Assembly (NCBI GenBank): GCA_965229215.1 | Contig: OZ245864.1 | Span: 3,035,346 to 3,099,345, forward strand | Direction of reading: 5' to 3' | DNA: 64,000 nucleotides | Source of the DNA: Tagaea sp. | Lineage (GTDB): Bacteria > Pseudomonadota > Alphaproteobacteria > CACIAM-22H2 | In this document: positions 21,001 to 24,000 of the stretch, in pieces | How the letters are laid out: every line of letters starts with the position of its first letter | How positions within the stretch are numbered: position 1 is the first letter of the stretch | Made by a program: the position numbers

Positions 21001-24000
21001 GAGCGCGATCGGCCGGTCGCGGACCGCATCGACGAGCCGGCGCGCGAACGCCTCGTAATCCTGGATGCCGGCCTTGCGCATCAGGGTCGGATTGGTCGTG
21101 AACCCGGCGATGAGCGGATTGGCATGCAGCTTCAGGATGCTGTCGAGATCGGCACCGTCGGCGAATATCTTCACCGTGAAATTTCGGACAGGCGACATGG
21201 CGGAACCCCAAGCTGGAAACGGCGGGACTTTACCCTTGGCGACGGGCAATACCACCAGTTTTTAAGGGGGCTTTGAACCGGGAAGCCATTGCACCCCCCG
21301 CGCCGCGATTCTATAACCGCCCGCACGCGACGCGATTGTCCGTCATACAACGCGCCCGCCCGAGGATTTCCGATGCACGACTGGACCAAGGCAGACTGGG
21401 TCGATCCGGCGCTCGACTGGAAGCCGTTGCCGGTGCCCGATCTGCCGGAGCGGCTCCTCGTCGACTACGCCACCCGCTGCAACCTGCGCTGCGGGATGTG
21501 CCCTGTCTGGGGTTCCGAGGACAACAACAGCATCGACTCCGTCAAGGGGATCATGAGTCTGGATCGGGCGCGCAAGCTGCTCGACGAGGTCGCGGCGGCG
21601 AAGCCGATGGTGGCGCCCAGCGTGTATGGCGAGCCGCTGCTCATTCCCGATTTCCGCACGGCGGTCATCGACCTGAAGTCGCGCGAAATGCCGATCGCGA
21701 TGAACACCAACGGATTGACGCTGACCGACGAGATCGCCGAGTTCCTCTGCGAACAGAAGGTCGACTCGGTGATGTTCAGTCTCGACTCGACGACGCCCGA
21801 AACGCTGATGAAGGTCCGTGGCATCGACAAGCTCGCCAAGATCGAGGAGGCGGTGTTCCGGCTGATCCGCATCCGCGGCGAGCGCGAGTATCCGCGCGTC
21901 GGCGTCTCGTTCACGGTCCAGGACAGCAACCGCCACGAGCTGGACGCTTTCGTCGCGAAGTGGGTCGGCAAGGTCGACGTCGTCCGCACGGGACTGGTCT
22001 TCGAATCGAACAACGGCGTGTTTCCCGACATGCCCGATCCCGGCCCGCGCAAGCCCTGCCCGGCGATCTACAAGACGCTGCCTGTCCACAATGACGGGAC
22101 CGTGCGGCTCTGCTGCCTCGACGGGTTCCGCGCCACGGATATGGGGAACGTTTTCGAAACCGGCGTGCGCGAAGTCTGGCAGGGCGAGGAATTCGCCAAG
22201 GCCCGCTATCACCACGAGACCGGACAGTGGGACAAGGTGCCGTTCTGCAAGAGCTGCAACGGCTGGGCGCAGTACGACTACGAAGAGGAAATCGACCAGG
22301 CCAACGGCATCCTGACGCGCCGTTCGCCGCAGTTCACCTATTACAACAAGATCGACCGGCTCTCGAACTGGAAGGGAACGCTGCTCGGCGGCCACAAGCC
22401 GCCGCCGCAGGATCTCGTCGACTGAACGCGGATTCTAGTCGAGGACGATCCGGTTCCCGGATACGACCTTGAATGTCGGATCCAGCCCCTTTGCACGCAT
22501 CTCGACGACGCGCCGATACGTCCCGAAATCCAGACGGAGCCCGTTGAGATCGGGCAGGAGGCGGTCTATCGCCTCGTCGGGATCGTAGCCGATCGCCGAG
22601 CGCAGGCGCGGATCGGCGCGCACGAACTGCATCAGTTCGATCGCGCAGTCGTTCAGGTTGAAGAGCTCGAGCAGCAGGCAGGATTTCGTGACCGTGTCGC
22701 GAAGCGACTGGCCTTCCGGCGCCGCAGCCGCCGCGTCGCGCCAGTCGGCGACCAGGTCGCGGACGAACAGCGCATCGAGCCCCTGGATGCGGCCGATGGG
22801 TCGCGCCGCGAAACGGTTGCCGTTCGGCAGCAGATGGCCGCCGGCCATGCACGCCTTGGTGCTGTGCCAGTATCCCAGACTGTGGAACCGGAGGCCGAGT
22901 TCGTGAATCGGCCTGGAGATCGTCGAGAAATGGCAGTCGGGCTGGCCGCGATCCGCCGTGAAGCCGCTTTCCGATTCGATCGCGAGCACCCGGCCAGAGC
23001 CGATGGTTCGCCGGCCGCCCGCGATGACATGAGGCTCGTGCCCTTCGACATCCATCTTGATGTAGTCCGGCACGGGCAACCGCCCTTCCGAAACGAGCGC
23101 GTCGAGGCGCCGGACGGGAACCCGGCGCACGCCGTCGGCCGCATCCCCGGCGGATTTGCGCAACCGCTCCAGTTCGCTCGCCGAGCCCGAAGAATAGAAG
23201 GAGCTCTGGGCCCTGTTCGCGCTGACATAGAACGGGCGCTCGCCGTCTTCGTCGCCGAGCGCCATCGCATGGTAGTGGACATTCGGCCGCACGTTGCCGG
23301 CCGCAAGCTCGCGGATCTCCTCCTCGATCGGATCGAAGCCGTGCGCGATCATGACCGGGGACAGGGGATCGAACCGCGGATGGATTCCGTCCTTGCAGCC
23401 GACATCGCAGAGCACGAACGGACTTTGCAGGATCTCGTTCTTCACGACCCAGTCGGTGAAATGCGTCGAGTGCGCCTGCTGAAGCGTCGTCATTTTTCCG
23501 CCATTCCATCTGCCGACACGGCGCGGCCTTGACTGGGTAGTCGCGTGATAGCATGAAAGCGCCATGGCGTCAGATACGCAAGATCAGGGACCGTCGGCAC
23601 CCCCGTTCTATTTTCTCGTCACGTTCTGGGGCAGGAAATACCGAGACTGGTTTCTGAAGTTCACCGTCGCGTCCCTGCTGGCGCCGGGAAACGCACCGGC
23701 GCTCGACGACCTGCCCCGCGCGCGATTCCTGATCGCGACGACGCGCGAAGACTGGGACGCGCTTTTCGAGAATCCGAATTTCCGGCAGCTGGCGGCGCTG
23801 GTGAAGCCCGAGCTGCTGGAGTTCCCGCCCGAGTCCGCGGCGCTCCACAAGTATTTCCGGATGTCGCTCGGCCACAAGATGCTGACGCAGGCCTGCTTCC
23901 ACGCGCGCGCCGTCGGCATAAACCTGAACCCCGACACGCTTGTGCCCGACGGCTGCCTCGCGGAGGCCCAGCGCATCGTGAAAGGCGGATGCAAGGTCGT

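Follow-up and report, generated by a model that had tools for sequence, protein, structure and literature searches.

A twitch-type radical SAM enzyme gene in a heptose-type surface-glycan region of Tagaea sp. and its possible role in optional sugar tailoring

The window analysed here is a 64,000-bp stretch of the genome of Tagaea sp. (Alphaproteobacteria), positions 3,035,346 to 3,099,345 of contig OZ245864.1, and all coordinates below are those of the window. It contains an open reading frame (ORF) at 21373..22425 (+) that encodes a 350-amino-acid twitch-type radical S-adenosylmethionine (SAM) enzyme, assigned from Pfam matches, homologues and an AlphaFold2 (AF2) model. We named it rSAM1. The gene starts with ATG at 21373, with a GAGGA ribosome binding site just 5' of it, and its codon-position GC content (GC1/2/3 = 0.62/0.44/0.87) is of the coding type. 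The high GC content of the window (0.60-0.70) makes unfiltered ORF lists noisy; genes were picked with a codon-position GC filter, which picks out 21289/21373-22425 (+). A protein identical to the product exists in the database (P0001), and homologues cover its full length. A scan for promoters and terminators around the gene found nothing.

Two Pfam domains were found in rSAM1, Radical_SAM on residues 34-167 (E 6e-16; 59.4 bits, cut-off 29.5) and SPASM on residues 229-296 (E 4e-12; 46.6 bits, cut-off 21.5). The N-terminal stretch ahead of the core is 33 residues long. Pfam detected no further domain in the protein, and no B12-binding, RRE or PqqD domain. At NCBIfam cut-offs, no family was assigned to rSAM1, to the second radical SAM gene of the window (rSAM2, see below) or to the heptose-like genes. 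The best NCBIfam matches of rSAM1 reached 97 bits against cut-offs of 380-400, covered its N-terminal half only and were maturases of metalloenzymes and of the tungsten cofactor. From the GC pattern, the ribosome binding site, the homologues and the Pfam domains, rSAM1 is a real radical SAM enzyme gene, as an earlier note on this DNA had claimed from its CxxxCxxC motif; the absence of a B12 domain, also claimed there, was confirmed.

The core motif of rSAM1 reads C36-N-L-R-C40-G-M-C43 (21478..21501, +) and was found in the translation and in the alignments. Its C36-x3-C40-x2-C43 spacing is that of the SAM-cleaving [4Fe-4S] cluster, and reductive cleavage of SAM to a 5'-deoxyadenosyl radical is the predicted activity. 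Two alignments were used for the other cysteines, A1 with 25 rSAM1 orthologues and A5 with rSAM1, 22 more distant relatives and rSAM2. Invariant in A1 are C36, C40, C43, C229, C247, C248, C292 and C295, and beyond position 295 there is no further Cys. In A5 only C36, C40, C43, C229, C247, C292 and C295 are invariant; C248 is mostly kept ('CC'), but some relatives have Q, F, T or P in its place. The residue at this position is F in BtrN and P in rSAM2. Since distant relatives, BtrN and rSAM2 can have another residue here, C248 is not a cluster ligand. It belongs to a C247-C248-L249-D250 motif (22111..22122, +; alignments A1 and A5), in which D250 is nearly invariant.

The auxiliary-cluster cysteines are spaced C229-x17-C247-x44-C292-x2-C295, exactly as in BtrN. 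Since only these four ligand cysteines are universally conserved and have the BtrN spacing, rSAM1 was classed as a twitch enzyme with a single auxiliary [4Fe-4S] cluster, for which C229, C247, C292 and C295 are the predicted ligands. The twitch (truncated SPASM) domain spans residues 229-296 (22057..22260, +), as defined by the Pfam SPASM match and the BtrN alignment. Both marks of a twitch domain, four Cys ligands and a beta-hairpin with a helix, are recognizable in the sequence and the predicted model, which has short strands at 235-238 and 243-244 and then helices. The full SPASM seven-Cys motif, CX9-15GX4C...CX2CX5CX3C...C, is missing despite the Pfam SPASM score above threshold; its only parts in rSAM1 are CX13GX4C (C229...G242...C247) and CX2C (C292 and C295). 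Thus, of the SPASM-type array proposed in the earlier note, the core motif and the C-terminal cysteines stand, while the array is a one-cluster twitch and not a two-cluster SPASM domain. Residues 300-350 (22270..22422, +) form a family-specific C-terminal extension, seen in A1, A5 and the AF2 model, with the signature (L/I)xRxSxxxTYYN(K/R)xDRLxxW. AF2 predicts three strands and a helix for this extension, which BtrN and rSAM2 do not have.

The AF2 model of rSAM1 (pLDDT 81.6, pTM 0.85) gave many Foldseek alignments at probability 1.00 with solved radical SAM enzymes in the PDB. BlsE was at the top, and BlsE, SuiB, BtrN, anSME, SkfB and DesII (the last from rank 13 onward) all lay within one order of magnitude. 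Judged by the model, rSAM1 falls in the SPASM/twitch group, and the fold search does not tell the members of this group apart. When a family profile was compared with all PDB sequences, BtrN ranked first (E 2e-8), with an ungapped match over 77 residues of the C-terminal domain. In this match C229/C247/C292/C295 fall on C169/C187/C232/C235 of BtrN, which, with the alignment in view, we take to be its auxiliary ligands. BtrN was the only match when the twitch segment alone was compared with PDB sequences, and anSME matched the rSAM1 core only (E 3e-5). With a profile match to BtrN at E 2e-8 and an identity of about 17%, rSAM1 is not a BtrN orthologue.

On the left of rSAM1 lies a divergently transcribed transaldolase gene (20479..21255, -; NCBIfam TIGR02134, 325.8 bits, above cut-off), and on the right an FkbM-family methyltransferase gene (22435..23565, -; Pfam and NCBIfam). 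Both neighbours had been named in the earlier note and were borne out by these matches. The transaldolase belongs to the same conserved cassette as rSAM1, a SIS-HAD-TAL-Epi2-Epi1-HldE block being found in many loci; the FkbM methyltransferase is strain-specific, with a homologue in about 5 of 82 loci. The gaps flanking rSAM1 are 117 bp upstream and 9 bp downstream, and neither contains an ORF of at least 20 amino acids. With no adjacent small ORF, no RRE or PqqD domain and sugar enzymes as neighbours, rSAM1 does not have the surroundings of a maturase for peptides that are made on the ribosome and then modified (RiPPs), and the absence of a precursor-peptide ORF nearby, as first noted, was confirmed. 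Precursor, protease, peptide exporter and sulfatase genes were never conserved neighbours in 82 rSAM1-anchored loci and 7 transketolase-anchored loci carrying rSAM1. An anSME-like enzyme is likewise not indicated: there are no Cys for a second auxiliary cluster, and sulfatase genes are not conserved neighbours.

rSAM1 has more than 1200 homologues, the best 120 of which are 64-100% identical to it. The orthologues form a tight family (60-85% identity), mostly from Alphaproteobacteria and from Nitrospirales metagenome-assembled genomes (MAGs). In a HMMER search over 1.84 billion cluster representatives, the orthologue group was one 50%-identity cluster (671 bits), surrounded by a halo of relatives at 230-390 bits, and 448 clusters were found at E<=1e-30. 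The 80 best loci on one-genome-per-species contigs were mostly from MAGs. They come from Alphaproteobacteria (Xanthobacteraceae, Stellaceae, Rhodospirillaceae and Magnetospirillum), Nitrospirales, some Beta- and Gammaproteobacteria, Gemmatimonas and Acidobacteria. Of all these genomes, a Tagaea sp. MAG stands nearest; its rSAM1 is 85% identical, and its local gene order is the same as in the window. The pathway of bradyrhizose, a C10 bicyclic sugar, was considered and rejected: none of the 80 genome matches is from Bradyrhizobium, and the published candidate cluster differs.

The cassette proteins were mapped by tblastn onto the 82 rSAM1-anchored loci, 50 of which have full 10-kb flanks. A core block reads SIS-HAD-TAL-SDR-SDR-(nucleotidyltransferase + PfkB kinase)-GFO-nucleoside diphosphate (NDP)-sugar dehydrogenase-TKn-TKc, where TKn and TKc are the N- and C-terminal subunits of a split transketolase. 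An accessory block reads DegT-NUDIX-(hexapeptide acyltransferase or carbamoyltransferase)-AAC(3)-like N-acetyltransferase-rSAM-U386. Sugar-pathway genes were present in 50/50 full-flank loci, which supports the role in a sugar context, over a peptide maturase, that had been proposed for rSAM1. DegT and NUDIX were each found in 36 of these loci, the AAC(3)-like N-acetyltransferase in 34, a U447-family protein in 32, TKc in 30 (split-transketolase subunits 27-30), the hexapeptide acyltransferase in 27, U386 in 21 and each heptose gene in about 18. The adjacency of NDP-sugar dehydrogenase, TKn and TKc is almost universal in the cassettes. The core cassette recurs in many environmental genomes, whether rSAM1 is present or not.

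The carbamoyltransferase (9/50) and the hexapeptide acyltransferase (27/50) never occur together and occupy the same slot ahead of the AAC(3)-like N-acetyltransferase; the hexapeptide enzyme is closest to Vat/CatB O-acetyltransferases. Because the two never co-occur, they probably provide alternative decorations, O-carbamoyl or O-acetyl, at the same position. Elsewhere the gene most often found directly upstream of rSAM1 encodes a small NUDIX hydrolase; no NUDIX homologue was found in the 64-kb window or in the locus of the closest relative (L003). We also considered a transketolase acting on a free sugar released by NUDIX, as in a nonulosonic-acid-like route. This idea lost ground, as most cassettes without NUDIX still have the transketolase.

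To separate core from accessory genes, an independent scan of metagenome contigs was anchored on TKc. It gave 80 loci, 26 of them with at least 7 kb downstream of TKc. rSAM1 was present in 5 of the 26. The hexapeptide acyltransferase was found in 5/5 rSAM1-positive and 1/21 rSAM1-negative loci (Fisher p 9e-5), the N-acetyltransferase in 4/5 and 1/21 (p 0.0016), U386 in 4/5 and 2/21 (p 0.005), NUDIX in 4/5 and 3/21 (p 0.01) and DegT in 5/5 and 9/21 (p 0.04). This co-variation indicates that the heptose, GFO, dehydrogenase and transketolase genes are core and that rSAM1 belongs to an optional block for tailoring plus transfer.

The window holds all core and accessory genes except NUDIX and the hexapeptide acyltransferase, spread over 20-50 kb. 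On the minus strand these are a DegT/PseC-like sugar aminotransferase (26297..27499; Pfam DegT, NCBIfam PseC/LegC-like below cut-off), whose start overlaps the transketolase stop (ATGA), TKc (27496..28422) and TKn (28419..29249), both by Pfam and NCBIfam, and then, by Pfam, the NDP-sugar dehydrogenase (29919..31202), the GFO/IDH/MocA oxidoreductase (31199..32230), the HldE-like nucleotidyltransferase + PfkB kinase (32137..33834), two short-chain dehydrogenase/reductase (SDR) epimerases/dehydratases (33687..34691 and 34697..35719) and the GmhA-like SIS isomerase (36377..36961). They are followed by U386 (36992..38188, -; AF2 and Foldseek). On the plus strand lie a NodU-like carbamoyltransferase (42344..43960) and an AAC(3)-like N-acetyltransferase (43944..44729), both by Pfam and NCBIfam and both beside rSAM1 in other genomes, and a GmhB-like HAD phosphatase (49564..50229) whose start codon is uncertain; homology by tblastn spans 49684-50130, and the NCBIfam GmhB score of 124 bits is below cut-off. 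For the core genes at 29919..36961, whose order is kept across loci, every NCBIfam match falls well short of its equivalog cut-off, and the GmhA-, GmhB- and HldE-like proteins are likewise all far below NCBIfam equivalog cut-offs. In the HldE-like protein the nucleotidyltransferase is N-terminal and the PfkB kinase C-terminal, the reverse of E. coli HldE, and both halves are far below the rfaE equivalog cut-offs. Because these proteins are divergent and the domain order is reversed, the precursor appears to be of the heptose type but made by a non-canonical pathway.

U386 (P0124) is a 398-amino-acid GT-B protein with no Pfam match. Its AF2 model (pLDDT 83.8) has a GT9 heptosyltransferase-like fold, the top Foldseek matches being the GT9 enzyme 3tov (6e-9), WaaC, WaaF and TibC. 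In the gene-order maps of other genomes U386 is directly downstream of rSAM1. The 464-amino-acid U447-family protein at 23564..24958 (+) is a frequent neighbour of rSAM1, and the family has no Pfam match even at E 5, no NCBIfam match and no PDB sequence match. The window has three copies of a U447-type domain of about 300 amino acids, at 23564-24958 (+), 38185-40233 (-) and 40125-42101 (-). The domain starts with the motif W-G-E...P-(S/A)-L-L-(S/A)-P-G-N-(I/L)-P-A and has a conserved D-S-D. The products of 38185-40233 and 40125-42101 are tandem paralogues (40% identical) and align with the 464-amino-acid family by hhalign at a probability of 98.7%. A relationship of U447 to U386 was rejected (hhalign probability 0.1). 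The U447-type domain may be a new glycosyltransferase family.

Other genes lie within or beside the cassette. A class I SAM methyltransferase of about 213 amino acids with a VLDIGCAKG motif (29263..29904, -) is located between the NDP-sugar dehydrogenase and TKn; it lies inside a longer spurious ORF (29263-30552) and was missed by the codon-GC filter. ORFs of 155 amino acids (35900..36367, -) and 395 amino acids (25068..26255, +) have coding-type GC3 and no Pfam match. The former has no homologue in 82 related loci and the latter one (L003); both are specific to the version of the cassette in this lineage. A 398-amino-acid pentapeptide-repeat protein is encoded at 50253-51449 (+), between the HAD phosphatase and an FkbM methyltransferase. 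The cassette lies inside a larger stretch of glycan genes that includes GT2, GT4 and Wzy_C genes and a pair of ABC-2 exporter genes. Positions 1-16132 contain two NTP_transferases, a DegT, a second NDP-sugar dehydrogenase, a Polysacc_synt_2 dehydratase and an RmlD-like reductase. A membrane sulfatase-fold protein is encoded at 2357-4306, 17 kb from rSAM1, and an autotransporter beta-domain protein at 16156-17274. Because the left part adds sugar-nucleotide genes, the whole window is largely one cell-envelope glycan region.

A second related enzyme, already suspected in the earlier note, was confirmed at 58682..59623 (+). This paralogue, rSAM2, is a 313-amino-acid BtrN-type twitch radical SAM protein with the same two Pfam domains and 27% identity to rSAM1 (E 6e-20). 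Its invariant Cys are C30/C34/C37 and C223-x17-C241-x44-C286-x2-C289, and its best PDB match is BtrN, over both domains (E 4e-17). The family has 191 matches, some fused into proteins of about 520 amino acids with an extra domain. In the window the order is methyltransferase-rSAM2-GT2-WbqC, in a separate, conserved sugar sub-cluster at 57667-61327 (+) with an ArnC-like GT2. Elsewhere SDR-DegT-rSAM2 is found in three unrelated loci (L083, L084 and L085), and in two of the three rSAM2 is then followed by an ArnC-like GT2, WbqC and a methyltransferase. Since rSAM2 has no extra Cys, the simplest guess from its sequence is a BtrN-like oxidation coupled to DegT.

Taken with the cassette, these features suggest that rSAM1 is a BtrN-type twitch enzyme for optional tailoring of an ADP-heptose-derived amino sugar of a surface glycan, a reading to which we assign a probability of about 0.55. 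Its substrate class, site of attack and reaction outcome are what we infer from this setting. In this scheme the cassette would make an ADP-heptose-type nucleotide sugar from sedoheptulose-7-phosphate, which would then be oxidised and extended by the GFO oxidoreductase, the NDP-sugar dehydrogenase and the split transketolase. DegT would aminate the sugar, the AAC(3)-like enzyme would N-acetylate it, and O-acetylation or carbamoylation would be added. The GT9-like glycosyltransferase may pass the sugar on to a cell-surface glycan, with export here probably by a Wzm/Wzt-type ABC transporter. In the radical step, the reduced cluster on C36/C40/C43 would cleave SAM, and the 5'-deoxyadenosyl radical would take H from a carbinol carbon of the sugar. 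C248, as a candidate donor, could then return H to the opposite face and invert the stereocentre. If C248 is not the donor, the radical would instead be oxidised by way of the auxiliary cluster, giving a keto sugar, as in BtrN.

By analogy with known epimerases, we tentatively place epimerisation with C248 as candidate donor slightly ahead of BtrN-like dehydrogenation. The candidate for such a donor in rSAM1 is C248, invariant in the orthologues, not a ligand and next to the ligand C247. A catalytic role for this residue is plausible, because the corresponding residue of anSME, D277, which comes right after the equivalent ligand C276, lies in the active site.

The alternative that survives best is that rSAM1 is a BtrN-like radical dehydrogenase, which would turn a secondary alcohol of the heptose-derived sugar into a ketone and pass the electron to the auxiliary cluster; DegT would then transaminate the ketone and the AAC(3)-like enzyme acetylate the new amine. 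The BtrS/BtrN/BtrS logic of 2-deoxystreptamine biosynthesis is a precedent for such an order of steps. BtrN is the best solved homologue, with an identical Cx17Cx44Cx2C and a fully Cys-ligated auxiliary site, DegT accompanies rSAM1 in 5/5 TKc-anchored and 36/50 rSAM1-anchored loci, rSAM1 co-varies with the AAC(3)-family N-acetyltransferase, and in three unrelated loci a DegT gene stands directly upstream of the paralogue rSAM2. Fully Cys-ligated auxiliary clusters are, moreover, thought to be electron acceptors in two-electron oxidations (PMC9012708). However, DegT is also found in 9/21 cassettes without rSAM1, the core already has NAD-type oxidoreductases (GFO and the SDRs) able to make keto sugars, and a dehydrogenase would leave the invariant C248, absent from BtrN and rSAM2, unexplained. 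We regard this reaction as possible but rather unlikely.

Other radical sugar chemistry is improbable but deserves mention: a BlsE-like decarboxylation of a uronic acid made by the NDP-sugar dehydrogenase, an AprD4/DesII-like dehydration or deamination, or C-C bond formation or rearrangement leading to a branched, carbocyclic or higher-carbon sugar. BlsE heads the Foldseek list and DesII also stands high in it, the NDP-sugar dehydrogenase and the split transketolase are constant members of the cassette, and DesI/DesII is a precedent for the pairing of DegT with a radical SAM enzyme. Against this, BlsE and DesII were missed by the sequence profile at E<0.01 while BtrN was found, the N-acetyltransferase implies that the amine is kept, which argues against a DesII-type deamination, and the dehydrogenase and transketolase are present in most cassettes without rSAM1, so neither depends on it. 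C-methylation, another suggestion of the earlier note, is unlikely, because there is no B12 domain and we know of no precedent for methylation by twitch enzymes. A peptide or protein maturase (RiPP SPASM or anSME-like) or a metallocofactor maturase, in the glycan locus by chance, is very improbable: the Pfam SPASM match, the partial NCBIfam matches to metalloenzyme and tungsten-cofactor maturases (97 bits) and the sulfatase-fold protein 17 kb away at 2357-4306 speak for it, but the NCBIfam matches are all far below cut-off (97 against 380-400) and no cofactor-maturase model reached its cut-off, the full seven-Cys SPASM motif is missing, and there is no RRE/PqqD domain or adjacent small ORF, with sugar enzymes as the conserved neighbours.

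Several points weigh against the tailoring role that we prefer, and in particular against epimerisation. BtrN, the nearest relative with a solved structure, is a dehydrogenase, and in 5/5 TKc-anchored loci with rSAM1 there is also DegT, an enzyme that requires a keto sugar; this suits oxidation just as well. By Foldseek scores, BlsE, BtrN, anSME and DesII cannot be told apart. The co-variation sample is small (26 loci) and confined to +/-10 kb, and the accessory genes of the window are scattered across about 30 kb, with NUDIX absent. A lipid-linked or polymeric glycan, and not a nucleotide sugar, could be the substrate. In the searchable literature (radical SAM with heptose, transketolase, O-antigen or twitch) we found no description of the family or the cassette, and no biochemistry of any member of the rSAM1 family.

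A wider idea, which we consider doubtful but worth stating, is that environmental bacteria share a widespread but undescribed pathway to a modified or higher-carbon amino-heptose of their cell surfaces, with rSAM1 as its first radical SAM enzyme. In such a route, which may be present in Nitrospirales, Xanthobacteraceae, Rhodospirillales and other taxa, the split transketolase and the NDP-sugar dehydrogenase may remodel an ADP-heptose-type precursor, and the twitch enzyme may do what NAD-dependent enzymes cannot, that is, invert an unactivated centre or possibly form a C-C bond or a carbocycle. On this idea, the pairing of a BtrN-like radical SAM enzyme with an AAC(3)-like acetyltransferase would connect ordinary surface-glycan biosynthesis with aminoglycoside-type chemistry and with the ancestry of the AAC(3) resistance enzymes.

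What is new here is a tight and widespread twitch family, with a paralogous second one, in surface-glycan loci of mostly uncultured soil and water bacteria. The rSAM1 family flags an accessory block within a conserved heptose/transketolase cassette. To our knowledge, nearly all radical SAM enzymes known to act on sugars come from antibiotic biosynthesis (butirosin, neomycin, hygromycin B, desosamine and blasticidin). If rSAM1 does epimerise or oxidise an unactivated centre of a nucleotide heptose, radical sugar chemistry would extend to the biosynthesis of lipopolysaccharide and capsular polysaccharide. Such a reaction would also help to annotate more than 1200 database proteins now labelled just 'radical SAM protein'. 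The system offers a testable entry point, since its set of enzymes is defined, it has a cultured source genome and a dedicated GT9-like transferase, and C248 is a diagnostic residue.

As a pathway, the cassette shares the enzyme classes SIS, kinase, HAD, nucleotidyltransferase, transaldolase, GFO, SDR epimerase and DegT with the ADP-heptose (GmhA/HldE/GmhB) and septacidin heptosamine pathways. The lincosamide octose pathway of lincomycin likewise has the same enzyme classes. Compared with all three, the rSAM1 cassette adds the split transketolase, the NDP-sugar dehydrogenase, NUDIX and the radical SAM enzyme.

As an enzyme, rSAM1 can be set beside other radical SAM proteins. Like BtrN, the 2-deoxy-scyllo-inosamine dehydrogenase of butirosin biosynthesis (PDB 4M7S/4M7T), it combines a radical SAM core with a twitch domain; BtrN also has a carbohydrate-derived substrate and a DegT-family aminotransferase as partner. 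In contrast to BtrN, to which it is only about 17-18% identical, rSAM1 has about 25 extra conserved residues at the N-terminus and about 50 at the C-terminus, plus C248, and its cassette has a heptose-type surface-glycan context without a 2-deoxy-scyllo-inosose (DOI) synthase or aminoglycoside genes; no DOI-synthase-type gene was among the conserved neighbours in the 82 rSAM1 loci. BlsE (cytosylglucuronate decarboxylase) and DesII (TDP-4-amino-4,6-dideoxyglucose deaminase) are radical SAM enzymes with sugar nucleotides or nucleosides as substrates, and the rSAM1 cassette resembles their setting in having a uronic-acid-forming dehydrogenase and DegT. The rSAM1 sequence profile recovered neither at E<0.01, and DesII has no twitch cluster. 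B12-dependent methylases of the GenK/Fom3 type differ from rSAM1, which has no N-terminal cobalamin-binding domain. In the radical SAM epimerases, HygY and NeoN on aminoglycoside sugars and EpeE/YydG and PoyD on peptides, a non-ligand Cys gives H to the substrate radical. HygY has a twitch-type auxiliary domain, and its C183A variant reportedly turns the epimerase into a dehydrogenase. The non-ligand H-atom donor is C249 in NeoN (PMC10991966) and C223 in EpeE, a twitch-type epimerase (PMC13012085; PMC8326336). rSAM1 has an invariant non-ligand Cys, C248, as candidate donor and, as in EpeE, a twitch-type domain, although the match to EpeE is weak (Foldseek about 3e-7). Overall, rSAM1 resembles the known sugar-acting twitch radical SAM enzymes without being an orthologue of any of these.

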